This document shows, piece after piece, positions 17,601-37,412 of a stretch of 64,000 nt of DNA. Within the stretch, counting starts at the first letter, position 1; each line of letters starts with the position of its first letter. Source of the DNA: a virus (taxonomy: Duplodnaviria; Heunggongvirae; Uroviricota; Caudoviricetes); the IMG/VR virus record IMGVR_UViG_3300049617_000342, positions 18,536-82,535 of that record; one strand, 5' to 3'. The notes under the pieces were generated by a model, which saw nothing but the letters and a program-made list of their open reading frames with translations, did no database searches and had not been told where the DNA came from. A program made the translations under genes and the position numbers.

Positions 17601-18530
17601 GTCGTCCCCGTAGTTCTCGCTCCAGTGGTCCCAGGCGTCCTGGGTGGTCATCATGTGGTACGAGTTGTGGAAGTGCCAGCCGTCGGGGTCGCCGTTCTTG
17701 AGCAGCATGTCCTGGACCGGCTTCTCGTCCGGCTTGACGAAGTGGCTGTCGACCGTCAGGATCAGGGGAAGGTTGTTGGCCCGGGCTATCTCGATGTTCT
17801 TGAGGTTGCAGGCCTTCTGGAGGTCGCCGTCTGGGCTGAAGTCGGTGCACTCGTTCGGCGTGAAGACCTTCTCCTTGCGGTCCCAGTCGTGCGTGCAGTT
17901 GTGCGGCATCAGCTCGACGAACAGGCGGCCCGCGTAGGCCGACATGAGCCTCTCGAGGTTCCGCTGGGCGCCGTCGTTCTCGCCGTTCAGGAGCGCCTTG
18001 TTGACGGCCCCGATTAGACAGCCGCTGCCCAGCACTAGCCCCTCGTTGTACTGGACCAGCTCGTCGAAGGTTATGCGGGGCTTCACCTGGCCGAAGCGCT
18101 TGATGACTCGGGCGTACATGCCCTCGACGTTGCGGGTGACCTTGTCCTTGGTTACAGCCTTCTGGGTGTAGATCTCGCTCTTGTCGAAGGACAGGGAGCC
18201 GAGCTTCAGCAGGTTGCGGTAGCCGGCCTCGTTGACCGCCCAGGCGGTGACGTGGTAGTACTCGTAGGCCTTGCCGCTGAACTTGTAGTCCGCGTCCGGC
18301 GCCACGTAGAACTCGACGCCGGGTATGCCCACTATGCCGGCCTCGCCGGCGCTCTTGTACATCTCGAGGGCGCCGATCATCCAGCCGTGGTCGGTGACCG
18401 CCATTCCTGGCGCCCCGTTGTCCTTGCACCACTGGATGTACTCGGAGATGGTCGACGCCCCGTCGAGGACGGAGTAGACGGTGTGGGAGTGAAGCGGACA
18501 TAGCTGCAGCTTCGTCGGTGATTCTGACAT
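14619..18530 (-). CDS. dnaE: DNA polymerase III alpha subunit (DnaE family) with N-terminal PHP domain
   Basis: ~1303 aa. The N-terminus LHSHTVYSVLDGASTI…VTDHG matches PHP-domain motifs, and the length and architecture match DnaE. The start was moved to the internal ATG (MSESPTKL), because the track start would overlap the tRNA. Confidence 0.85.
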   Translation of the reverse strand: MSESPTKLQLCPLHSHTVYSVLDGASTISEYIQWCKDNGAPGMAVTDHGWMIGALEMYKSAGEAGIVGIPGVEFYVAPDADYKFSGKAYEYYHVTAWAVNEAGYRNLLKLGSLSFDKSEIYTQKAVTKDKVTRNVEGMYARVIKRFGQVKPRITFDELVQYNEGLVLGSGCLIGAVNKALLNGENDGAQRNLERLMSAYAGRLFVELMPHNCTHDWDRKEKVFTPNECTDFSPDGDLQKACNLKNIEIARANNLPLILTVDSHFVKPDEKPVQDMLLKNGDPDGWHFHNSYHMMTTQDAWDHWSENYGDDEENRKIFVEAVESNHQIVEMAKALTIKDEYHQPIIEIPQDLRDAAADEREALKGLIMRKIEEHGRMKWDDPDWLERLQMEMEIICDNGVQDFARYFLFMEQWQSWTRAHSILSAPGRGSGAGSLLCYLLKITHLDPFEYKLPFSRFLSPGRIKRRKFPDIDWDMGNRKPLLAKLSETYGENFAQATTHGTMKLKSALKDAFRVLYVNPLENEIDRTPRGPKRDQLVERLEALMPEVEVITKNIPNTPMGTKDREFLEGYTDKDGVEHEGYLYTDEALQAFLVKYHDEDPTKDLRTMFTKMLGIPRSVGRHASAYFISDRPIYESAPLCDVSGHTCTQYTAPPQGFSAAEKAGLIKFDILGVTTLLDISNCIRLVQKSLGYNVWKEKMKIGEKEFDLWLGERSIEEVCMPDGTVHNIYTLPEDEGVFRDLQEGKTESVFQMNSALMTGWTKRIKPTRKEDCSVIVAIIRPGPLLAEIDQDDPDRPIMVAPKVQAVDDEGRPLFHKLTMADAYVKRKNGRVPITYAHPGMEPILKDTYGVAVYQEQLQLMFQHLAGYSEEEADTIREMVGKKKKQDMENLIPELRRRLSERGWTEEQSQVFINLCLASAKYSFNRAHSASYGNIAYACAFLKHHFPKEWWTAVLQNCKEEDIREKGYARTLKDMLVLPHVNGPMDEFEARPDGKVHTPLWMVKGVGAAACKAIQKAIDDRANDIAQGGFSQETSEIMAEAQFSSLQDFFERVDRKACNEGIFEKLILVGAFSLIEPGKSEKDLFREYLYLKKLSGLKLGEGKTGRDLRDAVEAYIVTSGAKPGPKGSKCQNEQIEDELALKFSFDGLELEIKRMSLLSIYRMDVHEMFRPLMESHILYDESGIDTYRDSGGVFVSTRSTKDLALFWDSGMGKKDREVVFSGLLESKEDFEYTDKKTKEKVKALRLSIVNAGDKVEGVIWPSTRDNMRRHGEREPSGNKILICRGRVKPSRTPGLWSLSISRLVEL

Positions 18531-18556
18531 TCGCCTATATCGTACCAAGGTTGGAG

Positions 18557-18632
18557 TGGTAGCCCCACCCCGAGTCGAACGGGGATCATCCATTTAGGAA
18601 ACGGAAGCTCTGTCCACTTAAGCTATGGGGCC
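18557..18632 (-). tRNA. tRNA-Arg (anticodon CCU)
   Basis: Cloverleaf folded by hand on the reverse complement. Acceptor stem GGCCCCA/TGGGGCT (G1·U72), D-stem GCTT/GAGC, anticodon stem TCCGT/ATGGA with loop TTCCTAA, T-arm CCCCG-TTCGACT-CGGGG, and an encoded CCA. Coordinates ±1. Confidence 0.75.
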
Positions 18633-26329: not shown

Positions 26330-27319
26330 CTAGTCCTCGTCCCGTGCCTGCTGGCAGAACTCCACCACCGCCTTGCGGGCTGCTGGCGGGATTTTGTTGG
26401 ACATTACTCCCAGGAGGCTGCACGCCTCCTTGGCCTTCTTGAACAGATCCGCCTGCTTGTCCGGTTCCTGTGGGTTGGTCCATGGCCTGCTTTTCCCCTC
26501 CGCTATCTTGCGGGGCAATTCCTTCTGTATGAAGTTCCTGACTGCCTCGTACGTCACTATGAACGCGTAGCTGAGTTCCCTGCTGTCCGACGCGAAGGCC
26601 ACGCCAGCTATGTCCCCCTTGTCGTCCAGGACGGCGCTGCCGCTGGAGCCCGGGAGTATGGTCGCAGAGACAACCTGTGACTCGTAGTCCTTGAATATGG
26701 GTATACCGCCCAGGAACGCGCACAGGAAGGCCTTGTTCTCGTCGGCTAGGTCGGCCTCGGTGCACTCCTTGATTCCCGTCATGATCTGGATGATCTTCTT
26801 GCCCGAGAAGTGCCCCCTCGTTATGATTGTGGGGAACAGCGCGGGGTGCCCGACTATGGTCACCGGCTCGAACTCCCTTGGCCTGTGTGACGCGAGCCTG
26901 GCCTTGTCGCCGTACTCGTAGGCCACCGTGAGGGCGCAGAGGTCGTGCTCGTCAGAGAGGTAGTAGCCCGTCACGTTGTGCTCGGAGCCGTCGGGCCCGC
27001 TCACCTTGCCGCCCTTCTTTAGGACGTGCTCGCAGACGTGGCTGTTGGTCAGGATGAGGCTCTCGGACTCGTCGGTCTGTATGACGCTGCCGCTGCCGCC
27101 GGAGTTGCCCTCCTGGTTGGTGATCATCACCGCGAAGCTCTGGGGCGCCGGCCTCTTGTTCAGCTCGTCTATCAGGTGTAGGGCGTCCATGTGCTTCTTC
27201 CCTGCGATCCCACCGAAGGCCAGACTGGCGATCAGGAGAATGGCGGGGGCCTTGTCCACCGCGGCGTCCTTGGCCGCTGCGGCCCTGAACAGAATCTTGG
27301 CTATCAACGAAGCGATCAC
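26330..27319 (-). CDS. trypsin-like serine protease with N-terminal membrane anchor
   Basis: N-terminal hydrophobic segment. His motif LTNSHV, Asp region, Ser motif PGSSGSAV (GDSGG-like). Confidence 0.6.
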   Translation of the reverse strand: MIASLIAKILFRAAAAKDAAVDKAPAILLIASLAFGGIAGKKHMDALHLIDELNKRPAPQSFAVMITNQEGNSGGSGSVIQTDESESLILTNSHVCEHVLKKGGKVSGPDGSEHNVTGYYLSDEHDLCALTVAYEYGDKARLASHRPREFEPVTIVGHPALFPTIITRGHFSGKKIIQIMTGIKECTEADLADENKAFLCAFLGGIPIFKDYESQVVSATILPGSSGSAVLDDKGDIAGVAFASDSRELSYAFIVTYEAVRNFIQKELPRKIAEGKSRPWTNPQEPDKQADLFKKAKEACSLLGVMSNKIPPAARKAVVEFCQQARDED

Positions 27320-27332
27320 AAATTCTCCTTTG

Positions 27333-29048
27333 TCATTGCTGGCTTATCTCCTGAGAAGCCTTGATTATGCCCTCTTGCATTGCGCGGATCTTCTCCGCCT
27401 CCTCGGTGTTCGAGACGGCGATAACCCCACCGAGTGTCATAAGCATCTGCGCGACGGACAGCGAGTTGTCCAGCGCGGTCATGGTCACCTTGGCGGGGTC
27501 CATGATGCCCGCCTCCCACCAGTCCACGTACTTCATCCCCAGAGCGTCGAACACCAGGAACTTGCCGTCCTTGGGGCCGACCAGGTCGGCCGTGTTCTGG
27601 AGGTCCTTCTCGTCTATGAGGCCGGCGTTCTTTAGTATCTGGATGAACGGCATCGCCATGGCCTTCCTGAGGATGCCCTCGGCGCCCTCGGGCGACATCC
27701 CCTTCGCTATCTGGAGCAGCGTGGTTCCTCCACCCGGGACGACGCCCTTCTCGACCGCGCTGCGGACCGAGCTGACCGCGTCGACCACCCGAGCGTGGCG
27801 CTCCTTGGCCTCGAAGCTGGACACGCCGCCGGCATAGACGACCGCGACGCCGCCCGTTAGGCAGCTGATGCGGTACCGTATGCGGTCCTGGTCGAAGTCG
27901 TTGGCGCCCTGCATCTTCTCCTTGAGGTCTGCTATCCTCTTCTCGATCAGCTCGATCTTGGCGTCCGCCTCGACGACGGTGTCGCTCGGGGTGACCTTGA
28001 TCGACCGGGCGAAGCCCATGTTGAGGATGGTGGCCTCCTTGAGCCCGTGGGCCACGGGGTCGAACACCTGCCCGTCGACGTAGGCCGCGAGGTCGTGCAG
28101 GAAGCCCTGCTTGCCGTGCGCCTGGCCGTTCCTGGGGGTGATCAGCGGCATGCACGTGAACCGGCCGAGCCTGAAGTTCTGCGCGAGCAGCTTCAGCACC
28201 GCGTCGGAGTACCTGTGGGCGAAGATGATAAGGGGCGTCATCAGGGCCCGGCCGTTCTCGCCGATCTCCTTGCTGACGTCCGTCATGACTGGGATTATGT
28301 CCTCGGCCACGTTGATCTCGCCGTCGTAGAGCAGCACGTATGCGCCGCCCTCGATCTTCGTGTCGCCGTAGGCGTTGTTGTTGACGAACAGGGTGCTGGC
28401 GGAGCCGCCCAGGTCGCGGAGCCCCGTGGTTATAGGGAAGCCAGGCTTGATCTCGACGCTGGTGTCCGCCCCGGCGCCCTCCTCGGCTATGATCATCCCG
28501 TCCTCGCCTACCTTGTCGGCGGCCTCGGCCACCTTCTCGGCTATCTCGAGGTCGTGGTTGGCGCTGACCTTGGCTACGTGCTTGAGGGCGGCGCGGCTGT
28601 CCTCGACGGACATGCCCTTGATCTGCTTGGCCATGGCCTCGACCGCCGGCTTGACCTTGTCGTTCAGTATGGTCTTGAGCCTGCGGCTGAGCTCCTGGGG
28701 GCTGATGTGCGGGTTCTTCTGGAGGAACTCCTGGCCCTCGCGGACCATGGCGGCAGCCAGCACTATGGCCGTCGTGGTGCCGTCTCCGGCGACCCTAGCG
28801 GTGCGCTCGCAGACCTCCTTGGAGGCGTCCACGACCACCCGCTCGACGGCGCCCTGCTCCGCGTAGTACCTGGATACGGTGACGCCGTCCTTGGTGGACA
28901 GCGGCGCCTTGCCAAGCTCCTGCTCGAGGAGCATGGTGCGCCCGCCGGGGCCGAGGGTCATGCCCACGGCCTTCGACAGGTTGTCTATCGCGGTGAAAAC
29001 CTTGAGCCTGAACTCTGCGCTGTCAAGAAACGTTATCGGTGCCGGCAT
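27333..29048 (-). CDS. groL: chaperonin GroEL (Cpn60)
   Basis: 571 aa, colinear with GroEL. Matches include AGDGTTTA, the equatorial ATP-binding regions, and GGVAVVYAGGVSSFEAKERHARVVDAVSSVRSAVEKGVVPGGG. Confidence 0.9.
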   Translation of the reverse strand: MPAPITFLDSAEFRLKVFTAIDNLSKAVGMTLGPGGRTMLLEQELGKAPLSTKDGVTVSRYYAEQGAVERVVVDASKEVCERTARVAGDGTTTAIVLAAAMVREGQEFLQKNPHISPQELSRRLKTILNDKVKPAVEAMAKQIKGMSVEDSRAALKHVAKVSANHDLEIAEKVAEAADKVGEDGMIIAEEGAGADTSVEIKPGFPITTGLRDLGGSASTLFVNNNAYGDTKIEGGAYVLLYDGEINVAEDIIPVMTDVSKEIGENGRALMTPLIIFAHRYSDAVLKLLAQNFRLGRFTCMPLITPRNGQAHGKQGFLHDLAAYVDGQVFDPVAHGLKEATILNMGFARSIKVTPSDTVVEADAKIELIEKRIADLKEKMQGANDFDQDRIRYRISCLTGGVAVVYAGGVSSFEAKERHARVVDAVSSVRSAVEKGVVPGGGTTLLQIAKGMSPEGAEGILRKAMAMPFIQILKNAGLIDEKDLQNTADLVGPKDGKFLVFDALGMKYVDWWEAGIMDPAKVTMTALDNSLSVAQMLMTLGGVIAVSNTEEAEKIRAMQEGIIKASQEISQQ

Positions 29049-29356
29049 TATTCCTCGTAGTCGTCAGCGTCGTAGTTGTCTTCGCCCAGGACCACGACGT
29101 TGTTGAGGTCTCCGAGGTCGATGATGTTAAGGTCCTTGTCGGTGTCGAGCAGGTAGATGTAGCCCTCGCCGATGTCCTTGACGATGCCCTCGATGTTGTC
29201 CGTATCCGAGTCGGCGTAAACGGCCCTGACCACCTTGCCGGTCACGTGCGCTGCGAGCCTGGCGTACTTGCTGGTCTCTGAAACTCCGTCCGCGGCGAGC
29301 TTCTTGGCCACGGTTCCTGCTAGTGTTGGTGCGTAGTCGATCGTTTCTTCTGTCAT
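29048..29356 (-). CDS. hypothetical acidic protein (102 aa); a co-chaperonin role is speculative
   Basis: Translationally coupled (TAATG) immediately upstream of GroEL. No recognisable GroES or gp31 motifs. Confidence 0.35.
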   Translation of the reverse strand: MTEETIDYAPTLAGTVAKKLAADGVSETSKYARLAAHVTGKVVRAVYADSDTDNIEGIVKDIGEGYIYLLDTDKDLNIIDLGDLNNVVVLGEDNYDADDYEE

Positions 29357-29802
29357 ATGTTTTCCTCCTGGCTCTTGGCCGTGTACTTGCCCTCATAGAG
29401 GGCCTTGGAAACATAAGTGTACTGCAAAAGGAGGTACGAGGGAGGAACCGCCTGGATACCCATCTTGGCGGCGATGCCGTCGGGGTTCGGCTGGAAGCCA
29501 TTCAGCCTTAGGCCCAAGGGTCCGGCTAGGCTGCCGGTGGCTCCGTCCGCCGCCGCTTCGTCAACTTTGGCAGCAAACTCCCTCAGCTCCTGGTCGGTGG
29601 GGGTCTCCGTCTTGCACCTCTTGCCGATGCCTATGACGTAGCGGTTCTTGGTCTCGTCCTCGTAGACGTAATACATCTGCTTATGGACCACGCCGTCGAA
29701 TAGGGCCTTCCTGGTTTCTTCCTTGAATAGGGGCTTTATCTTGTCCGACCAGTCCTCGGTCTGTATTTCGGACCCCTCTTGCATTTTCGCTTCCATTACC
29801 AC
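29353..29802 (-). CDS. hypothetical protein (149 aa)
   Basis: ORF in the track. Confidence 0.4.
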   Translation of the reverse strand: MVMEAKMQEGSEIQTEDWSDKIKPLFKEETRKALFDGVVHKQMYYVYEDETKNRYVIGIGKRCKTETPTDQELREFAAKVDEAAADGATGSLAGPLGLRLNGFQPNPDGIAAKMGIQAVPPSYLLLQYTYVSKALYEGKYTAKSQEENI

Positions 29803-30074
29803 TCCACCTCGAACCTGAGTTCTCCGTTGGGGCCCTTCGTGTCCGGGCCGGGGTTTATGAAGAGCTTTATGCCGCTCTCCGACAGTATCTTCTCCTGCAC
29901 CTTCTCGGCGTACCGCTCGGGCACGTAGAAGTAGGTGTTCTGGAAGCCGAGCCTGGCGTAGCGGAGCATGTGCGCGAAGGCCATGTCGGGCATCCTCACG
30001 ACCTCCTCCCTAGACGCCTTGGTGGCCTTGCCCAGCTTCTGGGCCCAGCTACCCTTCTTCTTCCGTCTCATCAT
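29796..30074 (-). CDS. hypothetical protein (~92 aa)
   Basis: Internal ATG chosen to avoid a 176-nt overlap with the upstream gene. Confidence 0.3.
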   Translation of the reverse strand: MMRRKKKGSWAQKLGKATKASREEVVRMPDMAFAHMLRYARLGFQNTYFYVPERYAEKVQEKILSESGIKLFINPGPDTKGPNGELRFEVEW

Positions 30075-30726
30075 CCGCCTTACGGTGGCCACGGGCCCAG
30101 TCCGTCCGAAGTTGGTTAGGGAGTCCGCCGTCATGGTAGTTGAGGCCAAGCGCATCGCATTGCTCCTGTATGGTGGGGTTCCCCCACGGGTCCAGTATCT
30201 TGTCGCCCTTGCCCAGGCCGGCAAGCTGTATCAGGTTCAGTATCACGAGCGAGGGGAGCAGCCTCCTCTCCCTGCGGTCGCAGCGGACGGGCCAGTGGTC
30301 GCCGATGCAGGTGAGGAACTCGTCCTCGTCGAACTGCTCCTCTCGCCCCGCCGCCCCGCGCCTGGGCCGGGCTGGGCCGTCCCTGTCTATGTGCCAGTCC
30401 TTGCCCCTACAGAGGACGGCTATGGGCTCCCAGGCGTTGGTGATCCGCCTGCTCCTCGTGGTCACGACGTGCCTGTCCCTGTGCCACGATATGAGCGACA
30501 CGAGGTGGAAGCCGGCGATCTCCAGCTCGGTCAGGAGCTTGGCGCCGTTGCCCGGGGCATCCACGTGTATCGGCATCGAGAGGCATATCAGGCCGCGCTT
30601 GTCGACCTGGCTGGCCTGGTCTATCACCGGGGCCGAGTCCCACGTCTTGGCGTACGGCATCCTGGATATGAGTGCCTGGAAGCTTCCCCTCTCCGGCACC
30701 ACCACGCTGCTCTTCTTGGCCGCCAC
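30049..30726 (-). CDS. hypothetical protein (225 aa); weak resemblance to circularly permuted DNA methyltransferases
   Basis: A late ILDPWGNP segment is reminiscent of MTase motif I (ILDPFxGSG) but lacks GxG, and there is no clean DPPY motif. Confidence 0.3.
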   Translation of the reverse strand: MAAKKSSVVVPERGSFQALISRMPYAKTWDSAPVIDQASQVDKRGLICLSMPIHVDAPGNGAKLLTELEIAGFHLVSLISWHRDRHVVTTRSRRITNAWEPIAVLCRGKDWHIDRDGPARPRRGAAGREEQFDEDEFLTCIGDHWPVRCDRRERRLLPSLVILNLIQLAGLGKGDKILDPWGNPTIQEQCDALGLNYHDGGLPNQLRTDWARGHRKADDETEEEG

Positions 30727-30736
30727 TGTCTCTCCG

Positions 30737-30991
30737 TTACCTGTAGGTGCAGCTTACGGCGACGCTTCCGTTGGAGTGGGAGAGGACCACGGTGCACTGC
30801 CTGTCTCCGCGGTCGCACTCGTAGATGTCGGCGAAGTCGACCTTCTCGCTGAGCCTACAGTTCGAGTCCAGTATGGGCTCCGCGGGGACCGCGGGCGGGT
30901 GCTTGATGCCGTAGTACGCCCCGCCGCCCACACCGACCAGGATCAGCGCGACGGCCAGCAGCAGGACAGCGTCAAACAGACTTAGTTTCAA
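30737..30991 (-). CDS. small membrane protein (84 aa)
   Basis: N-terminal TM helix LFDAVLLLAVALILVGVGGGAYY. C-terminal Cys-containing domain. Confidence 0.4.
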   Translation of the reverse strand: MKLSLFDAVLLLAVALILVGVGGGAYYGIKHPPAVPAEPILDSNCRLSEKVDFADIYECDRGDRQCTVVLSHSNGSVAVSCTYR

Positions 30992-31223
30992 GTGCGAGTA
31001 CCTCGTCCTTCGGGACGGCCACTATGCGGATGTCCCCGTTCACGAACATGATTGGTGCGGTGATCTTGAATTTCTTCACGAAGTTGTTGACGGAGTGGAC
31101 GAACATCCTCATGCCGTGGGAGCCGAAGTTCTCGTCGAGGTACACGACGAGGAACTCGCCTGGCTTCACGTCGACGTGGGCTATCCGTTCTACGAGCGCT
31201 TCTGGTGTTAGCGTCTCTGACAT
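30972..31223 (-). CDS. hypothetical protein (83 aa)
   Basis: ORF in the track. Confidence 0.4.
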   Translation of the reverse strand: MSETLTPEALVERIAHVDVKPGEFLVVYLDENFGSHGMRMFVHSVNNFVKKFKITAPIMFVNGDIRIVAVPKDEVLALETKSV

Positions 31224-31294
31224 TTGTCCCCAAAAAGTGAAAGGGCACCGGAGAATTTCCGATGCCCTTATAGTTTACCTTTGGGTACTACTAC

Positions 31295-32704
31295 TTAGCT
31301 GTTGTTGGCCTTTGGGTCGATCAGCGTCTTGCTGGTTTTGTCCTCGAGTTTGCCGAGGTATCCAGGTGCGTCGATACCGCTGCTCTTGAGCATCTCGTGG
31401 AAGCCTGGTAGCATCCCCGCGAAACTCTTCACGAAGCCAGCGACTCCGCTGTCCCCGTTTCCGCTTCCACCGTCGAAGACCACGACCTTGTCGAACTTGA
31501 GGTTCTTGATTGCCTCGGTCTGCTTGGTGACGAGCGTCTCCATCTTCTCGATCATTAGGAGTGTTGGTGCGAGCTCAGGCGATGCTGCCGCGATGAGGTT
31601 CTTGTAGCCGGCTGCCTTGGCGTCGAGGACGAGCTGGATTCCTTTGGCTTCCGCCTCGTACTTGGCGAGGATACCGTCTGCCTGCCCCTTCGCCTCGATG
31701 CGGGTCTTCTCTGCGTTGGCGTTTGCCTGTGTCTCGATGATGCTCTTGGTTACTTGTTGCTGCGCGAGTTGCTCCTTCTCGAGCTTGGCGAGCTCTTTCT
31801 CTTTTTCCGCCTTGAAGACCGCTGTTGCGGCTTCGGCTTGGGCTACCTGACCGGCTCTGGTCGCGGTTGCCTTGGCCACTTCCAAGGTTGCGTTGTAGCT
31901 GGCGATCTTGGCGTTCGCGTCGTTCTCACCCTTGATTGCGTTGGAGTTGAACTCGGCGACCTTGATTCTCTGGTTGGATGTCGCTTCTTGCTTCCCCACC
32001 TCTGCTGCGGCGTTCTGCTGGGCGACGCTGACCTGTTGGTCCTTGGTGGCTGTTGCTACGCCGATTTCCCCGTCCTTGTTGCGGCCGGCTACGGCGATCT
32101 TGGCTTCGTTCAAGGCACCGGCTATGGCGTTCTGGCCGATAGCCTTGAGGTACCCGGACTCGTCGGTGATGTCGTGGATGTTGACGTTGATGATCTCTAG
32201 GCCGATCTTGTGGAGCTCAAGGTTGACGTTGTCGTCGACCGTCTTGAGGAACTTGTCTCGGTTGCTGTTGATCTCCTCGATCTGCAAGGTCGCTATTGCG
32301 AGACGGAGCTGGCCGAGAACCATGTCCCGTGCCTGGGTCATTATCTCTTCCTTCTTCAAGCCGAGCAAGCGCTCTGCCGCGTTCTGCATGATCTCGGGTT
32401 TGGTCGAGATCGCGACCGTGAAGGTGGAGGGGATGCTTACCCGGATGTTGTTCTTCGCCAAGGCGCCCTGAAGGTCGACCTCGAGCGCGAACGGGTAGAG
32501 CGACATGTACGCGTAGTCCTGGATGAGCGGGATTACGAACGCGCCGCCGCCGTGGATGCAGCGTGCGGTCTGGTTGCCGCCGACGCGGCCGTAGATGACT
32601 AGGATCTCGTTCGAGGCGCAGCGCTTGTACTGGTTGACCGCGAAGAGGAGGCCGAACAGGAATATTGCCGCCGGCACGACGTAAAGCGCTATGGTTCCAA
32701 ACAT
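31295..32704 (-). CDS. flotillin-like SPFH/Band-7 protein (YqiK-like)
   Basis: N-terminal TM, then an SPFH domain (…VIPLIQDYAYMSL…), then a long Ala/Glu-rich coiled-coil 'flotillin' region (AQAEAATAVFKAEKEKELAKLEKEQLAQQQ…). Confidence 0.75.
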   Translation of the reverse strand: MFGTIALYVVPAAIFLFGLLFAVNQYKRCASNEILVIYGRVGGNQTARCIHGGGAFVIPLIQDYAYMSLYPFALEVDLQGALAKNNIRVSIPSTFTVAISTKPEIMQNAAERLLGLKKEEIMTQARDMVLGQLRLAIATLQIEEINSNRDKFLKTVDDNVNLELHKIGLEIINVNIHDITDESGYLKAIGQNAIAGALNEAKIAVAGRNKDGEIGVATATKDQQVSVAQQNAAAEVGKQEATSNQRIKVAEFNSNAIKGENDANAKIASYNATLEVAKATATRAGQVAQAEAATAVFKAEKEKELAKLEKEQLAQQQVTKSIIETQANANAEKTRIEAKGQADGILAKYEAEAKGIQLVLDAKAAGYKNLIAAASPELAPTLLMIEKMETLVTKQTEAIKNLKFDKVVVFDGGSGNGDSGVAGFVKSFAGMLPGFHEMLKSSGIDAPGYLGKLEDKTSKTLIDPKANNS

Positions 32705-33295
32705 TTAACTCTCCTTTGATTGTAGGCCGACAATCGGCTCGACGAGTAGTTTACCATCGTATATCCCCGCAACGCGAATGCGCTGAAAGGCCTTGACTTC
32801 CCCGGACTTGACGATCGCCTCGAACTCCTTGAGGCCGCCGAGGGACTGGATCTGGACCGTCGCCTTGCCGTCCTCCTTGGGGAGGTAGACCATGCCGTTC
32901 TTGCCGACCATCGAGGCCATGTCGAGCTCGTAGTCCGGGGTCTTGTCCAGCCTCTTTATCAGGTACATCACCGTGCTGGTGAGGACCATGGTGGCGAAGC
33001 CCGCCGCGAAGGCGAGGGCCGCGGTGGCGGCGGACGAGAAGCCGTGCTCGAATCTAAAGGACAGGCCCGACCAGCCGAAGCCCATCAGGAAGCCGAAGAT
33101 CGAGATGATCGATAGTAGCTTGAACTGGTTGTCCGAGTGGTTCGCCGTGGCGTGGGGGTGCCCGACGTCGTGGACGTGGACCTCGCCGAGGCCGTGGGCG
33201 GCGCCCATCACGTCTCCGACGAAGATCGAGATCAGCCGGAAGCCGAACAGGATCGAGCCGAAGCTCGCGATAGCCATGTAGAACTTGTATTCCAT
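32705..33295 (-). CDS. NfeD-like membrane protein (YqiJ-like partner of SPFH proteins)
   Basis: Multi-TM N-terminus plus a C-terminal soluble beta (OB-like) domain. Immediately upstream of, and stop/start-adjacent to, the flotillin gene, matching the conserved NfeD–SPFH operon arrangement. Confidence 0.6.
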   Translation of the reverse strand: MEYKFYMAIASFGSILFGFRLISIFVGDVMGAAHGLGEVHVHDVGHPHATANHSDNQFKLLSIISIFGFLMGFGWSGLSFRFEHGFSSAATAALAFAAGFATMVLTSTVMYLIKRLDKTPDYELDMASMVGKNGMVYLPKEDGKATVQIQSLGGLKEFEAIVKSGEVKAFQRIRVAGIYDGKLLVEPIVGLQSKES

Positions 33296-33657
33296 TATTT
33301 TGCCCTCTCGACGAGCGCCGCTATGGCGCTGGTTATTTCATAGTCTCCGGCCACCGGCGCGTTGGCCGATATCTGGCCCGGCTTCGGCGCGGCCCTGCTC
33401 CCCGGGTTCCAGGCGCCGTCCACCACGCCGCTGCCCGAGAGCATCTTGATCAGCCCGGTCGCCTCGCCCAGGAACTTCTGGCTATCCACGACGAACGACA
33501 GCCCCGCCAGGGCGGCTGCGACGACGTCGGTGCTCTGGTACGGTGTCGGGTCCCGGAGGACGTCCAGGTCACTCGCGGCCGTGACGAGCTCTTCCCCGGA
33601 CTGGGGGCTCAGCTTCTTCCTGTTCCGGGGCGACGACAGTTGGTCGTAGGTTATCAT
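33295..33657 (-). CDS. hypothetical protein (120 aa)
   Basis: ORF in the track. Confidence 0.4.
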   Translation of the reverse strand: MITYDQLSSPRNRKKLSPQSGEELVTAASDLDVLRDPTPYQSTDVVAAALAGLSFVVDSQKFLGEATGLIKMLSGSGVVDGAWNPGSRAAPKPGQISANAPVAGDYEITSAIAALVERAK

Positions 33658-33668
33658 GCGCTGGAATT

Positions 33669-33893
33669 CTACGCGGGTCCATGGCCTCCACGGTTTCGCT
33701 CAGCTTTTTTGGTCCTGACCCTGATCTCCTCGGCCTCCTGGACCTGGTCGTCGAGCGTGAGGCCTGCGGACTTCAGGACCTTGACGAAGCCGCCCTGGAC
33801 GCCGCCGAGTATCGAGATGACGAAGAAGGCGGCCACGGGGTTCGCGGTCGCCCAGTTGACGAGCCTCTCCGCGAATTTCACAAGGTCATCCAC
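33669..33893 (-). CDS. small membrane protein (74 aa)
   Basis: Central hydrophobic helix PVAAFFVISILGGVQGGFV. Confidence 0.35.
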   Translation of the reverse strand: MDDLVKFAERLVNWATANPVAAFFVISILGGVQGGFVKVLKSAGLTLDDQVQEAEEIRVRTKKAERNRGGHGPA

Positions 33894-33938
33894 CGCTTCC
33901 GACCCTCAGCCTTATGCAGGCGCCCGTCAGCGGGTGGC

Positions 33939-34394
33939 TCATTCGCTGCACATGCAGTGGGTGCCGTGCTCGTCCATGTGTATCTCCTTGAGCCTCTTGT
34001 GGCCGGCGTCCGACCAGCAGATCGCGCGGCAGTACATCTCGCCCTGGAAGCCGGTGTCGTTCCTGATGTTGTCGCGCTCCTCGTCCATGACCGCGTCGCA
34101 GAGCAGCTCCACCGAGCCGTCGAAGTTCCCGGTCCAGTAGTCCGAGGCCTTCGTGATGATCTCCTTGTCCTCGTCGGCGAAGGGGCCGTTCCTCATGTCG
34201 CTGGCGAAGGCGTACATGCCCTCGACGCACCCGGAGTGCCAGGCGTAGGGGTCGAGCGGCGGAGGAGAGGCGGGCTTCTCCACGGGCACGCCGTCCGCTA
34301 TCCGAGGCTCCTGGATCGCCCTGTGCGAGAGCACGCCGGCGAAGACCGCGGAGGCCAGGGCGGCACCGACCACGAAGCCAAACAGTGTCCTCAT
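33939..34394 (-). CDS. secreted Cys-rich protein (151 aa)
   Basis: Internal ATG (MRTLFGFVVGAALASAVFAGVL is a signal peptide) with GGAGGA RBS. Eight Cys in the mature part. The N-terminal part of the track ORF is shadow. Confidence 0.45.
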   Translation of the reverse strand: MRTLFGFVVGAALASAVFAGVLSHRAIQEPRIADGVPVEKPASPPPLDPYAWHSGCVEGMYAFASDMRNGPFADEDKEIITKASDYWTGNFDGSVELLCDAVMDEERDNIRNDTGFQGEMYCRAICWSDAGHKRLKEIHMDEHGTHCMCSE

Positions 34395-34537
34395 CAGCAC
34401 ATCCTCCATCCGAATAGGTACGCTATCGACAGCAGGATCAGGAGCGCCACGGGGACGCCGGTGGCGTACTCGAGGGCGCACACGGCCACGAGGGTCGCTG
34501 CGGATGCTCCGGCTGCTGTCAGGATTATCTTTTTCAC
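34394..34537 (-). CDS. possible small membrane protein (47 aa, GTG start)
   Basis: VKKIILTAAGASAATLVAVCALEYATGVPVALLILLSIAYLFGWRMC. Its stop overlaps the ATG of the downstream secreted protein (TGATG). Below the track size cut-off. Confidence 0.25.
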   Translation of the reverse strand: MKKIILTAAGASAATLVAVCALEYATGVPVALLILLSIAYLFGWRMC

Positions 34538-34672
34538 GTTTGTATTTTACGGTCCTGGCGCGGGGGAGTGAGCCCCCGCCGGCGGGATTGCCTCTCGGCG
34601 ACACAGGTCACTAGCCCGTGAGGGTGGCGTTCCCATACCAGGTGCCGTTGCCACCAACAGGCAAAATGAAGT

Positions 34673-34993
34673 CTACTCGCAGTAGTGGAGCAGGAGCCAG
34701 GGGTACCTGTGGCGCTTGTCGGCGGGGCGGACCTCGCGGGCCCACTGCTGGGTGCCCTGCAGGACGATGCCCCAGCAGAGCGGCTCGTCGCGGCAGCGGT
34801 GGCAGGCCCTCAGCTCGTGCTCGCCCAGGCACCCGTCCTCGGGCTGGGACCTCTTGATCAGCCAGACCTCCTCGGCCGCGGCGTCGTTGGACTCGGCGAA
34901 GTCGGCGAGGTCCCTGGCGCCGAACGTGGGCTCGGGCATGGATGGCGTGCAGGCGAGGAGGAGCAGCAGCGCGAGGGGGCTAGGCACCTTCAT
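34673..34993 (-). CDS. secreted protein / possible lipoprotein (106 aa)
   Basis: Signal peptide MKVPSPLALLLLLAC (lipobox-like L-L-A-C), then a mature domain with 6 Cys. Confidence 0.4.
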   Translation of the reverse strand: MKVPSPLALLLLLACTPSMPEPTFGARDLADFAESNDAAAEEVWLIKRSQPEDGCLGEHELRACHRCRDEPLCWGIVLQGTQQWAREVRPADKRHRYPWLLLHYCE

Positions 34994-35243
34994 TCTTGAT
35001 GGCTTCCATGTGCCTGCGGATGTAGCGCATGAACAGGATGGCCTTGTCCTCGGCGAGGAACGTGGCGTTGCCTATGTCGCTGGTGGGCACGGGGAAGAGG
35101 AAGTGGTCGTCGGTCTCGTAGAAGAGCTGCGCGTCCCTGTAGTAGGCGAAGCGCACCCTGCCCCTGACGCGGTCCTTGAGCGTCACGGGTTGCCGAAGAG
35201 GGAGTGTATCGCCCTGAACACGTCGTAGCCGGTGACCATCCAC
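34980..35243 (-). CDS. hypothetical protein (87 aa)
   Basis: ORF in the track. Confidence 0.3.
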   Translation of the reverse strand: MDGHRLRRVQGDTLPLRQPVTLKDRVRGRVRFAYYRDAQLFYETDDHFLFPVPTSDIGNATFLAEDKAILFMRYIRRHMEAIKNEGA

Positions 35244-35341
35244 GTCACCATGCCGAGGACGACCACCGCAAGGGAGACACCGAGGTAGACGACCAGCAGG
35301 GCCCCGACGAACTTCGCCCCGGTTCTGAGGACCTTAGTCAC
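35183..35341 (-). CDS. small membrane protein (52 aa, GTG start)
   Basis: VTKVLRTGAKFVGALLVVYLGVSLAVVVLGMVTWMV… GTG overlaps the upstream stop (GTGA). Confidence 0.3.
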   Translation of the reverse strand: MTKVLRTGAKFVGALLVVYLGVSLAVVVLGMVTWMVTGYDVFRAIHSLFGNP

Positions 35342-35517
35342 TTGCCGTCTTCCATCCCCTGCGTCGGCGCGCCGAGCAGGTAGCCTGTCGCCTTGTCCTT
35401 CACCGTCGAGCCCACGACGTAGAGCACGGGGAGGCTGATGGCCAGCGCCACGATGCCCAGGAACAGCTGCGCCAGGAAGATGCCGATGCCGAGCTTGAAT
35501 CCGTCCTTGACTGTCAT
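35338..35517 (-). CDS. small membrane protein (59 aa)
   Basis: MTVKDGFKLGIGIFLAQLFLGIVALAISLPVLYVVG… First gene of the leftward block. Confidence 0.35.
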   Translation of the reverse strand: MTVKDGFKLGIGIFLAQLFLGIVALAISLPVLYVVGSTVKDKATGYLLGAPTQGMEDGK

Positions 35518-35557
35518 GTTTTCTCCTTTTCCCATTTGTATCAGTATACTTCTGCAA
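35518..35557. promoter_or_regulatory. AT-richer divergent intergenic region between leftward and rightward gene blocks
   Basis: It is the only noticeably A/T-enriched 40 bp stretch in this part of the window (ttttctccttttcccatttgtatcagtatacttctgcaa). It contains TTGTAT and TATACT hexamers, and genes diverge on both sides. Confidence 0.3.
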
Positions 35558-36136
35558 ATGTCTGTCGACAAAAAGAACCACAACGACTTCATCCAGGCGC
35601 GCGGCCACTACTCCACCGTCCCCAACGAGATCTGGGAGAGGGGGGACCTCGACCACCTGGCCAAGGTGGTGTGGTGCTACATCCTGAGCCGGGCCCCCGA
35701 CTGGGGCTCGAGCCGGAACAACCTCGCCAGGAACCTGAAGATGGGCAAGGACCAGGCCACCCGCTGCATCGGGGACCTGGAGCGCCTGGGGATGCTCAGG
35801 GTGACCAAGAGCTTCGGCGAGCGCGGCTGGGACTTCGAGGTCGTCCCCCCCACCGGGTGGTCACCGGAGTCCACTGGACCAGATCTGGTCCGGGGGCGGA
35901 CTAGGCCCCAGTCCACACACAATAAGCAAAACGTTATTAATAAACATATTAAAGAGGCTTCGAAACGTAAGCCATCGAAACCAGGTTGGAGGAGGAGCGA
36001 GGTCTCCGAGAAGACCGGGTTTGAGAGGGAGAGCGGGCGGTGGCCTCATGACCCCGAGGGCGACGCCCTCAGGAAGAGGATGAGGGCCGAGGACCGGGAC
36101 CGCGCGTGGCGCGACTCCAAGAAGCAGGACCAGTAG
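35558..36136 (+). CDS. hypothetical DNA-binding (winged-helix-like) protein, basic C-terminus
   Basis: Internal ATG (MSVDKKNHNDF…). The segment QATRCIGDLERLGMLRV is HTH/wHTH-like. The K/R-rich tail looks like a replication-initiator or regulator. Confidence 0.4.
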   Translation: MSVDKKNHNDFIQARGHYSTVPNEIWERGDLDHLAKVVWCYILSRAPDWGSSRNNLARNLKMGKDQATRCIGDLERLGMLRVTKSFGERGWDFEVVPPTGWSPESTGPDLVRGRTRPQSTHNKQNVINKHIKEASKRKPSKPGWRRSEVSEKTGFERESGRWPHDPEGDALRKRMRAEDRDRAWRDSKKQDQ

Positions 36137-36146
36137 AATGTGCCCG

Positions 36147-36161
36147 AGGCTCTCAGAGCCT
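36147..36161. promoter_or_regulatory. perfect 15-bp palindrome AGGCTCTcAGAGCCT
   Basis: It sits immediately after the stop of the 35558 gene and before the aminotransferase gene. It could be an operator or a short terminator stem. Confidence 0.25.
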
Positions 36162-36218
36162 TGCGGAACCCAGGGGGCCACCGCCAGAAATGGCTCCCGA
36201 ACTTTTCACGGAGAACCG

Positions 36219-37412
36219 ATGTCAGACTCGGCCATGCTAGACGCCAAGAAGCCCCTGCCCGAGGACTGGATCGACCTCGGCATAGGCGACGCGCGCATAG
36301 TCAGGGAGGCCCTGCTGGAGTCCTTCCCGGACCTCCAGGCCCGCGAGGTCTTCAGGGACCGCTGGCTCTCGCAGGAGGTCCAGTCGCTGGGCTACCTCCA
36401 GCCGGAGGGAATCCCGGGCCTCAGAATTTCCCTCAGGAAGCTGCACGAGCTACAGTTCGGGGAGGTGTGCGTCACCGCCGGCGCCAAGGCGGCGCTGCTG
36501 GCCGTGCTCGTGGCCGCGAAGGGGATGGGCCGGAAGGCCGTCACCGCCTACGTGCCTTACTGGTCCAGCTTCCCCAGGCTCGCCGAGATCGCCGGCCTCC
36601 ACTTCTTCCCGTTCGCGCCGCTCGCCAAGGAGGCCCAGCCATTCAAGCCCGGCGAGACCGTGATGATCGTCACCGACCCCAACAACCCCGACGGCCGGAA
36701 CACTTACGACTCGGTCTACGAGACGATCAGGGAGATGGGCTACATGCTGGTCCACGACGCCGCCTACTGGTCGCCGATCTACGGCATCGACAAGTCGAGG
36801 AAGCTGCCGTCCGCGGACGTGCACGTGTTCAGCTGCTCGAAGGCCATGGGCCTCAGCGGGGCCAGGGTCGGCTACACGATAGCGTGGCCCGAGATGCACA
36901 GGGAGATAGTCGAGGCGGTGGAGGCCACGACCAGCGGAGCGTCCGAGTACGCGCAGCAGGTGGTCTGGGACGCCGTGAACCTACAGACCAGCCGGCCCGA
37001 GCAGTGGGCCTCGTTCGTCAACGACGCCAAGAGCAAGATCGACATGAACAGGAAGGCGTTCCTGGAGAACCTGCCGAACGGCGTCGCCAGCACCGGCAGC
37101 ATGTACGCGGCGGACGACCAGCAGGGCATCTTCCTCTGGCTGGAGAAGGGACCGGAGTACGGGGTGGACAGGGTCCGCGTCGTGGACGGCAAGGACTTCG
37201 GCAGACCCGGATGGTTCAGAATCAACCTGGGCAACTACGGCCTAAAGGAAACAATCGACATTGCCAAGAAAAGAATGGGGAAGTCCCGAAGCGGAGCTGA
37301 ACCGAGTTGGAAAGATCCTAAGTCGAAGGACTGGTCGTCAATCGGCAAGGCGCTATCGGGCCTCCGCAAGTTTCGTGGGGGGTCCAAATCCCGACAAAAA
37401 TCAAAGCGCTAG
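36219..37412 (+). CDS. PLP-dependent aminotransferase (class I/II fold)
   Basis: 397 aa from the internal ATG (MSDSAMLD). Lys motif SCSKAMGLSGARVGY matches SxSKxxGxxGxRxG of fold-type I aminotransferases. A PNNPDG-type turn lies upstream. Confidence 0.65.
   Translation: MSDSAMLDAKKPLPEDWIDLGIGDARIVREALLESFPDLQAREVFRDRWLSQEVQSLGYLQPEGIPGLRISLRKLHELQFGEVCVTAGAKAALLAVLVAAKGMGRKAVTAYVPYWSSFPRLAEIAGLHFFPFAPLAKEAQPFKPGETVMIVTDPNNPDGRNTYDSVYETIREMGYMLVHDAAYWSPIYGIDKSRKLPSADVHVFSCSKAMGLSGARVGYTIAWPEMHREIVEAVEATTSGASEYAQQVVWDAVNLQTSRPEQWASFVNDAKSKIDMNRKAFLENLPNGVASTGSMYAADDQQGIFLWLEKGPEYGVDRVRVVDGKDFGRPGWFRINLGNYGLKETIDIAKKRMGKSRSGAEPSWKDPKSKDWSSIGKALSGLRKFRGGSKSRQKSKR

Follow-up and report, generated by a model that had tools for sequence, protein, structure and literature searches.

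Two adjacent genes lie on the minus strand of the 64,000-nucleotide stretch of viral DNA analyzed here (the window), exactly where an initial annotation made from the sequence letters had placed them: a gene for a 196-residue short NfeD-like membrane protein at 32705..33295, followed by a gene for a 469-residue flotillin at 31295..32704. The TAA stop codon of the former directly abuts the ATG of the latter, with an AAGGAG sequence 6 nt upstream.

The 469-residue protein is a flotillin of the SPFH superfamily. The Band_7 profile (PF01145), which the initial annotation had proposed as a check, matches residues 31-206 (E 3.2e-25, 89.6 bits vs a cutoff of 23.6), the Flot profile (PF15975) matches as well (E 5.9e-7, 30 bits vs a cutoff of 27), and phmmer aligns residues 28-439 with residues 4-411 of human flotillin-1/2 at E ~3e-20 (2.9e-20 for flotillin-1), an end-to-end similarity. 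An AF2 model of moderate confidence (pLDDT 69) contains a helix at residues 2-25, where a hydrophobicity scan places a hydrophobic segment (residues 1-26), and a single continuous long helix at 185-373; the best four Foldseek matches of this model are flotillin-1/2 chains (9l3g/9bq2). The layout is a membrane helix (2-25), an SPFH/Band_7 domain (~26-182), an Ala/Lys/Glu-rich helix (185-373) and a C-terminal Flot region, so that the long coiled-coil tail noted earlier is recovered both in the model and in the composition of residues 207-400 (A 21%, K 11%, E 11%, Q 8%). Membrane anchor and long coiled coil complete the flotillin assignment. The NCBIfam FloT equivalog NF058507 scores far under its cutoff (E 2.5e-48, 165.3 bits vs 700), which makes the protein a relative of FloT and not FloT itself, and no PHROG family fits it at E<=1e-3. 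Identity to cellular flotillins is 50-57%; the closest cellular loci (47-55%) are scattered across many phyla and point to no particular donor taxon. On the basis of homology to the 9bq2 and 9l3g structures, assembly of the window flotillin into a ring, dome or cage can be inferred.

Assignment of the upstream protein to NfeD is based on remote homology and predicted structure. Three TM helices are predicted at residues 2-26, 63-82 and 88-117, with a His-rich loop at 27-62, and the C-terminus (133-187) is a predicted five-stranded OB-like domain that structurally resembles solved NfeD domains. The N-terminal TM helices, the lack of a ClpP-type protease domain match in the 196 residues and the shared operon with an SPFH gene are likewise features of short-form NfeD proteins. 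The protein has no Pfam, NCBIfam or PHROG match of its own, and the PF01957 search proposed as a check failed, with nothing even at E<=10; the NfeD call therefore stands on family-level and structural evidence. PF01957 is found at sub-threshold level in 13 of 53 family members (best E 2.5e-4), and one homolog bears the NCBI name "NfeD family protein". When the single sequence was used in a word-indexed search of proteins, it retrieved only itself; recovering the family took an exhaustive HMMER run and a profile built from three sequences. Proteins encoded immediately ahead of flotillin homologs in cells share 29-36% identity with the window protein (E 1e-19 to 6e-21), and its identity to any sampled cellular protein is at most 40%. 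Against PDB sequences, the family profile finds YuaF at non-significant E values of 0.7 and 0.19. Family homology and the structural match together uphold the original description, in which a membrane protein ending in an NfeD-type OB domain is encoded directly ahead of an SPFH/flotillin.

The same arrangement recurs widely. In 72 of the 76 closest cellular loci, drawn from many phyla, a gene of the same NfeD-like family lies upstream of the flotillin gene on the same strand (directly adjacent in 64), and 75 of 82 viral loci show the NfeD-like/flotillin arrangement. Downstream in the window, a pattern scan finds a terminator-like hairpin at 31241..31269 on the minus strand (12-bp stem with 7 GC pairs, followed by a T-run) that begins 26 nt past the flotillin stop codon and is a candidate end of the transcription unit; since such sites are no more numerous in the region than in shuffled sequence, it counts as a consensus match, suggestive only through its position. 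On the upstream side, the TAA stop codon of a 120-aa ORF of unassigned function (33295..33657, minus strand) overlaps the ATG of the NfeD-like gene as TAATG, an overlap by which the two may be translationally coupled. This ORF, a possible third gene of the cassette, has no Pfam, PHROG or PADLOC match and no homolog in the syntenic relative discussed below.

Still further upstream, the leftward gene string continues through 33669..35517, also on the minus strand, as judged from gene calls on an identical contig mapped to the window. Its small ORFs are, in order of coordinate, 33669-33893 (74 aa, TM), 33939-34394 (151 aa, N-terminal hydrophobic segment), 34673-34993 (106 aa, with a lipobox-like LLLLAC), 34980-35186 (68 aa), 35183-35341 (52 aa, TM) and 35338-35517 (59 aa, TM); none has a homolog in the same relative. 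TM-like or signal-like segments are found in 8 of the 11 ORFs between 35517 and 30737. A consensus scan places a sigma-70-like match (TTGTCG-17-TATACT) at 35543..35571 on the minus strand, at the divergent strand switch and shortly ahead of the small ORF with which the leftward string opens, and the sign of the AT-skew reverses at ~34-36 kb. The promoter assignment is weak, as two sites were found against 1.2 expected.

Both sides of the pair are bona fide phage DNA. To the left are portal, TerL, DnaE and a phage GroEL, and to the right an HTH protein, RNR, helicase, DUF932 and a C1q-domain fiber-like protein, the phage genes extending for more than 25 kb either way. An IMG/VR contig (L021) is syntenic with the window on both flanks by tblastx, and an independent Logan assembly matches the window at 100% identity from 29257 to 36418, i.e. 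across both junctions. The pair lies deep inside a phage genome, as the initial annotation held. Searches of viral and metagenome collections for relatives of this phage around the variable region, with the GroEL and a 225-aa neighbor as queries, turned up just a single IMG/VR contig and a 1-kb metagenome fragment. At the corresponding site L021, the sole close relative sampled, lacks the pair and has 1.7 kb of unrelated small ORFs instead of the pair-bearing 5.5 kb. No close relative of the flotillin was found in the IMG/VR scan and no close ortholog in any other phage; megablast of 15 kb and tblastn of the NfeD-like protein gave no match among GenBank phages. Identity of the two proteins and their phage setting, taken alone, can be held with high confidence.

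The pair looks functional from its sequence. Both ORFs are intact, every family-invariant residue is retained, and their GC3 values of 0.81 and 0.88 are phage-like against 0.85-0.98 for the phage core; codon adaptation of the flotillin gene (0.57) is at the low end among the phage's genes. Because identity does not exceed 57% for the flotillin and 40% for its partner among billions of proteins, and because GC3 is phage-like, the capture is apparently not recent.

Among cellular systems, the closest likeness is to the Bacillus subtilis yuaF(nfeD2)-floT(yuaG) operon, in which the gene of a short, OB-ended membrane protein is likewise followed by an adjacent flotillin gene. FloT and the window flotillin share the N-terminal anchor, SPFH domain, long Ala/Glu-rich coiled coil and Flot region, although no yuaI-like third gene is found in the window. 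Analogous NfeD-like/flotillin operons occur in Gastranaerophilales, Acidobacteriota, Planctomycetota, Bdellovibrionota and others. The window pair differs from these cellular operons in being phage-encoded, and the cytoplasmic loop of its membrane protein is rich in His, in contrast to an acidic family consensus. The initial annotation had called the pair YqiJ/YqiK-type. E. coli yqiJ-yqiK does have the same order, an inner-membrane protein then a flotillin-family protein, but the designation does not hold: YqiK is merely 24% identical to the window flotillin (E 1e-15), and the 196-aa protein has no detectable similarity to YqiJ/DUF1449, YqiJ membership being rejected by BLASTP (E 0.69) and by hhalign of the family profile against YqiJ (probability 0.1%). 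A better comparison is with the YuaF/FloT arrangement and with a widespread NfeD-like family. The E. coli QmcA-YbbJ SPFH-NfeD cage (PDB 8z5g) differs in that QmcA is stomatin-like and the window protein is a flotillin.

Nor is the pair as rare among viruses as was first implied, since many IMG/VR contigs, as well as other phages in the databases, carry NfeD-like/flotillin pairs. In phage csAssE-Sib (OR575929), which belongs to a clade of human-gut viral contigs of roughly 76-155 kb, the flotillin WOZ57345 directly follows an upstream "transmembrane protein", WOZ57346, as in the window. WOZ57346 is a small multi-TM protein with the N-terminal pattern of the window partner and a C-terminal beta region (hhalign E 1.7e-5), and the csAssE-Sib pair is, like the window pair, placed among replication genes and not structural or lysis genes. 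Flotillins of the csAssE-Sib-like clade are under clear purifying selection (54 intact genes, median dN/dS 0.03). However, these low-GC gut phages are unrelated to the window phage, and the csAssE-Sib flotillin is longer (566 aa), 36% identical to that of the window and on a separate branch of a neighbor-joining tree; identity and branching indicate an independent capture. The cultured lytic, T5-like Vibrio phage KIT04 (LC487410) has an annotated flotillin, KIT04_048, among small early-type genes; it is 34% identical to the window flotillin and is preceded by a small membrane protein, but one of 82 aa without an OB domain. The window pair is independent of the other phage flotillin lineages. 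Prohibitin-like SPFH ORFs are carried by T4-like and jumbo phages; SPFH ORFs have been listed in phages 44RR, Aeh1 and RB43 since 2006 (PMC1524935) and also in Xanthomonas phage X1 (PMC13384950).

The reading favored here is that a tailed dsDNA phage captured a bacterial-type NfeD-like plus flotillin operon as one unit, and that the pair would now form the distal end of a variable, membrane-protein-rich leftward gene string that starts at the divergent strand switch. The solved SPFH complexes include a human flotillin-1/2 dome that is a 44-mer and the E. coli QmcA-YbbJ cage of 26 heterodimers (PMC13086221, PMC13000311, PMC12624060). By homology to these, both phage proteins would be co-produced in infection and inserted in the host inner membrane; the long coiled coil would drive oligomerization of the flotillin into a dome or cage facing the cytoplasm; and the NfeD-like protein would dock on the flotillin through its cytoplasmic OB domain, with its three TM helices occupying the enclosed membrane patch. 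The most likely role of such a structure would be an accessory maintenance or reorganization of the host membrane, keeping the infected membrane organized, fluid and energized, or corralling membrane proteins, until lysis. Assembly of the cage with its partner is likely on homology grounds, whereas the specific physiological role is tentative and rather doubtful. The statement as a whole, captured operon, cage and membrane maintenance together, has a somewhat better than even chance of being right. Bacteria in which one or several SPFH genes are knocked out often show mild phenotypes (PMC13086221), so the phage may gain little from the pair, or gain from it only in certain conditions.

The initial annotation had suggested roles in assembly, lysis timing or superinfection exclusion, all of which are conjectural; neither a lysis gene nor a defense-family match was found next to the pair. 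A different function for the same proteins is superinfection exclusion or inter-phage competition, in which the pair, together with the small membrane and lipoprotein-like ORFs, would alter the envelope and keep other phages from injecting their DNA. The known examples of exclusion proteins, among them T4 Imm and Sp and T5 Llp, are small membrane proteins or lipoproteins of the early class. The placement of the pair in a hypervariable region missing from L021, the abundance of TM-like or signal-like ORFs around it, one of them lipobox-like, and a candidate terminator of its own all fit such a role. To our knowledge, though, no SPFH protein is an exclusion factor, and the csAssE-Sib and KIT04 flotillins are found amid replication-associated or uncharacterized small genes and not known exclusion genes. 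PADLOC-DB 2.0 assigns no defense family to any of the eight proteins tested: the flotillin, its NfeD-like partner and five neighbors have no match, and the 225-aa neighbor has a marginal one to MTase_II (E 0.0037). The window ORFs scanned contain no integrase or other lysogeny marker and, in a non-exhaustive scan, no lysis or lysogeny gene near the pair. Exclusion is considered unlikely. Membrane proteostasis is about as improbable: the cage would work with the phage GroEL-like chaperonin and a trypsin-like protease, or modulate host FtsH in the manner of HflK/C, and so stabilize membrane or phage proteins or control their turnover. The S. aureus FloA-NfeD has been reported to stabilize unfolded proteins, and HflK/C cages enclose FtsH (PMC13086221). 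In the window, the GroEL (27333-29048; phrog_5725, 2e-95) and a Trypsin_2 protease (26330-27319) are encoded 2-5 kb downstream on the same strand as the pair, and PDB 7wi3 and 9cz2 are among the fold matches of the flotillin. Yet both GroEL and protease are kept in L021, which has no flotillin pair, and so appear independent of it; moreover, the window flotillin is not of the HflK/C subfamily, its best matches being flotillin-1/2, and the NfeD-like protein is the short form without a protease domain.

That the pair is a neutral passenger or an artefact, i.e. a recent host fragment without a role, an assembly chimera or the host flank of a prophage, is very unlikely. Its absence from the sole close relative, a codon adaptation slightly under that of the phage core genes and the lack of a close ortholog in other phages would suit this explanation, but the L021-syntenic genes on both sides and the identical independent assembly over both junctions count against it, as do the intact, tightly coupled ORFs, the conserved invariant residues, the phage-like GC3 and the low identity to all sampled cellular homologs. 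A more novel reading, with only a slim chance of being correct, is that the phage-made SPFH cage, perhaps loaded with the upstream small membrane proteins, is a virus-built membrane compartment in the infected bacterium. There it would sequester a host membrane machine, for instance a receptor, a protease or a complex for secretion or respiration, or else nucleate a phage process at the membrane.

The window pair is a further example of an NfeD-like/flotillin system and not a new kind of system. Structures of the bacterial flotillin and NfeD proteins are well described but their physiological role is poorly defined, and phage copies have been annotated, yet no study dedicated to phage-encoded or viral flotillins is found in the open-access literature searched. 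At least three independent captures, together with strong purifying selection in one lineage (csAssE-Sib-like), argue that flotillin function is useful to phages generally. If a virus-built compartment of this kind does exist, it would be a prokaryotic, virus-encoded counterpart of the exploitation of rafts by eukaryotic viruses, and the acquisition of flotillins in at least three phage lineages not related to one another would be the sign of a general infection strategy. A phage with the entire two-gene operon is a compact natural experiment and, since any benefit must act within one infection cycle, the pair could expose what the flotillin/NfeD cage does to the membrane.

Two minus-strand open reading frames abut and exactly fill positions 31295-33295, as the initial annotation had observed: a 469-aa protein is encoded at 31295-32704 and a 196-aa NfeD-like protein at 32705-33295. 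The 469-aa protein is a flotillin. Its Band_7/SPFH match (89.6 bits, E 3.2e-25) passes the Pfam curated threshold, so that the profile check proposed for it succeeds; the flotillin C-terminal family PF15975 is matched at 30 bits against a threshold of 27, and the alignment with human flotillin-1/2 is near full-length (residues 28-439 vs 4-411, E ~3e-20). NCBIfam FloT is matched at E 2.5e-48, but the 165 bits fall below the equivalog cutoff of 700, and the protein is therefore a relative of FloT, not FloT itself. An AlphaFold2 model built on a 44-sequence alignment (pLDDT 69) has a membrane helix at residues 2-25, an alpha/beta SPFH domain at 26-182 and a single very long helix at 185-373 followed by two shorter C-terminal helices. 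The top Foldseek matches of this model in the PDB are four chains of two human flotillin complex structures, with stomatin, prohibitin, HflK/C and QmcA ranked lower. The Ala/Glu coiled-coil tail was correctly described, residues 207-400 being 21% Ala, 11% Glu and 11% Lys.

The NfeD identity of the upstream gene product is supported in part. Searched singly, the 196-aa protein has no match in Pfam (even at E<=10, and thus none to the expected PF01957), NCBIfam, PHROGs or PADLOC, and a word-indexed search of 5.8 billion proteins returned only the protein itself. In an exhaustive HMMER search 884 representative clusters scored E<=1e-3, the best of them 40% identical, and two of the closest cellular flotillins have, directly upstream, genes whose products match it at 36% and 29% identity (E 6e-21 and 1e-19). 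Sub-threshold PF01957 matches occur in 13 of 53 members of this NfeD-like family, some of which bear source names such as "NfeD family protein" or [quoted passage not shown]. In the AlphaFold2 model (pLDDT 81, from 53 aligned sequences) three transmembrane helices (2-26, 63-82 and 88-117) are accompanied by a disordered loop at 30-54 and a beta domain of five strands at 133-187; the model's top BFVD match is an uncultured-virus 175-aa "NfeD-like C-terminal domain-containing protein" (E 1.4e-10). The assignment thus holds by predicted fold, architecture and gene context and not by a curated sequence profile; the protein properly belongs to a widespread NfeD-like group that has no name. The predicted cytoplasmic loop, residues 27-62, is His-rich (GEVHVHDVGHPHATANH) and modeled with low confidence; it is ~8 residues longer than that of the family, whose consensus is acidic (GGDSEVxADFNTETDTD), and may be a metal-binding variation. 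The label "YqiJ/YqiK-type" originally given to the pair finds no support, YqiJ having no detectable similarity to the 196-aa protein and YqiK being only 24% identical to the flotillin; of the named systems, B. subtilis YuaF-FloT comes closest.

The NfeD-like TAA directly abuts the flotillin ATG, which is preceded by AAGGAG 6 nt 5', and a 120-aa ORF 5' of the NfeD-like gene ends in a TAATG overlapping the NfeD-like start. Gene calls on an identical contig, mapped to the window, place eleven leftward ORFs in a row from 35517 to 30737, 8 of them with TM-like or signal-like hydrophobic segments; a 106-aa ORF (34673-34993, minus strand) has a lipobox-like LLLLAC (N-terminus MKVPSPLALLLLLAC). The pair is the largest component of this membrane-protein-rich cluster, which starts at a divergent strand switch where the AT skew changes sign. 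A terminator-like 12-bp GC-rich hairpin with a T-run begins 26 nt past the flotillin stop, and a sigma-70-like match (35571-35543) lies just ahead of the first leftward ORF; such consensus matches occur at about background frequency, and their positions alone are suggestive. AT skew is strong throughout the window (magnitude ~0.15-0.32) and tracks transcription direction, being negative in the first 34 kb, positive between 36 and 53 kb and once more negative from 54 kb on, with coding strands markedly A-rich relative to T.

The surroundings are those of a phage. Leftward of the pair, and encoded on its strand, are a phage-type GroEL, a trypsin-like protease, a DnaE-type polymerase, the large terminase and the portal protein; to the right are an HTH protein, an aminotransferase, ribonucleotide reductase, a helicase, DUF932, thymidylate-metabolism genes and a 1377-aa C1q-domain protein. 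No integrase was found among the window ORFs scanned. In a tblastx comparison with L021, the closest sampled relative (IMG/VR, 124.6 kb), similarity is collinear on both flanks (GroEL 60% identical). Where the window has 5.5 kb between the aminotransferase and a 225-aa gene, L021 has 1.7 kb holding four small, unrelated ORFs, and none of the small ORFs of 30737-35517 has a homolog in L021. The pair is therefore accessory and occupies a hypervariable slot. An assembly chimera is ruled out because an independent 7,162-bp Logan assembly matches 29257-36418 at 100% identity, both junctions included.

Several neighbors deserve mention in their own right. The GroEL-like chaperonin (571 aa; phrog_5725, 2e-95) is directly followed by the Trypsin_2-type serine protease (329 aa) at 26330-29048 on the minus strand. 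Second in the rightward unit is the class I/II aminotransferase (36138-37412, plus strand; PF00155 5e-26, with a weaker alliinase-like match), also conserved in L021; metabolic genes of this kind are unusual in the replication region of a phage. Near the C-terminus of the 1377-aa protein (53400-57533, minus strand) are two stretches of C1q domain (PF00386 8e-21); it probably serves as a tail fibre or receptor-binding protein whose head is C1q/TNF-like. The longest DnaE ORF (14619-18593) overlaps at its 5' end with a tRNA-Arg(CCT) gene (18557-18632, minus strand); the true start of the polymerase is probably at a later codon than this mechanical ORF implies.

The closest GTDB flotillins, at 47-55% identity, are spread over Gastranaerophilales/Melainabacteria, Elusimicrobia, Acidobacteriota, Planctomycetota, Bdellovibrionota and Gammaproteobacteria, and no donor taxon can be named from them. 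Since an NfeD-like family gene lies upstream on the same strand in 72 of the 76 closest cellular loci (directly adjacent in 64), the operon appears to have been captured as a unit. A three-gene variant, in which a 167-aa SPFH-like protein (L004:4475-4978; Band_7 E 4.5e-5) is encoded between the two genes, occurs in certain cellular loci attributed to uncultured gut bacteria (L004, and also L005 and L006). GC3 of the pair's genes (0.81 and 0.88) is near the phage core range of 0.85-0.98, and their codon adaptation lies near the bottom of the phage range; the near-native composition, together with low identity to all sampled sequences, argues against recent acquisition. The window as a whole is 62.7% GC. 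IMG/VR relatives found via the portal or GroEL protein are all 43-50% GC, yet their proteins are 45-70% identical, a very large shift inside one phage lineage, suggesting a change to a host of high GC.

Phage ORFs with an SPFH domain were already on record in 2006 (PMC1524935), and a recent paper lists them again (PMC13384950); no study of a phage-encoded flotillin was found in the open-access literature. A tblastn search of 50,697 GenBank phage records with the window flotillin matched 8, two being complete phages with a gene annotated flotillin. In the T5-like Vibrio phage KIT04 (LC487410) the membrane protein encoded just before it has 82 aa and lacks an OB domain; in csAssE-Sib (OR575929) the product of the preceding gene, a "transmembrane protein" of 164 aa, fits the profile of the NfeD-like family (hhalign E 1.7e-5) and shares the layout of the window protein. 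A profile-guided scan of IMG/VR found flotillins on 155 viral contigs, and an NfeD-like ORF lies immediately upstream in 75 of the 82 loci analyzed, the majority of which belong to a csAssE-Sib-like clade; some pair-carrying contigs of 425-597 kb (L024, L025, L029) could be megaphages or bacterial contigs misfiled as viral. Within that clade median dN/dS is 0.03 over 54 intact flotillin genes (47 distinct), so that phage-borne flotillins can be under strong purifying selection. The window flotillin falls among cellular sequences in a neighbor-joining tree, apart from other viral clades, and hence at least three phage lineages acquired flotillins independently. Comparable pairs are thus already present in deposited phage genomes and viral metagenomes, functionally uncharacterised.

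Solved SPFH assemblies are closed membrane-bound rings, domes or cages, e.g. the 44-mer flotillin-1/2 dome (PMC13000311; PDB 9bq2, 9l3g) and, as cited in PMC13086221 and PMC12624060, the SPFH-NfeD cage that E. coli QmcA and YbbJ form from 26 heterodimers. One proposal is that NfeD partners favor the oligomerisation of SPFH proteins (PMC13086221). By homology, the two phage proteins would be co-translated, inserted into the host inner membrane and assembled into an SPFH-type cage, with the OB domain of the NfeD-like protein docking to flotillin on the cytoplasmic side.

General membrane maintenance or reorganisation is tentatively ranked first among possible roles, because the whole cellular operon is kept unchanged in an accessory slot and because the pairs retained by independent lineages lie among small genes that are replication-associated or uncharacterised, and not in lysis or structural modules. 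Superinfection exclusion, a more specific reading that the adjoining small membrane and lipoprotein-like ORFs support, appears improbable. A proteostasis or FtsH-related role is about equally doubtful: S. aureus FloA-NfeD is reported to stabilize unfolded proteins (PMC13086221), and a phage GroEL and protease are nearby, but both are conserved in L021, which is without the pair. The sequence holds no pointer to a new mechanism. The core proposal of a phage-encoded SPFH-NfeD operon is upheld: the pair is a clean and probably functional example, and it could serve as an entry point into flotillin/NfeD biology.
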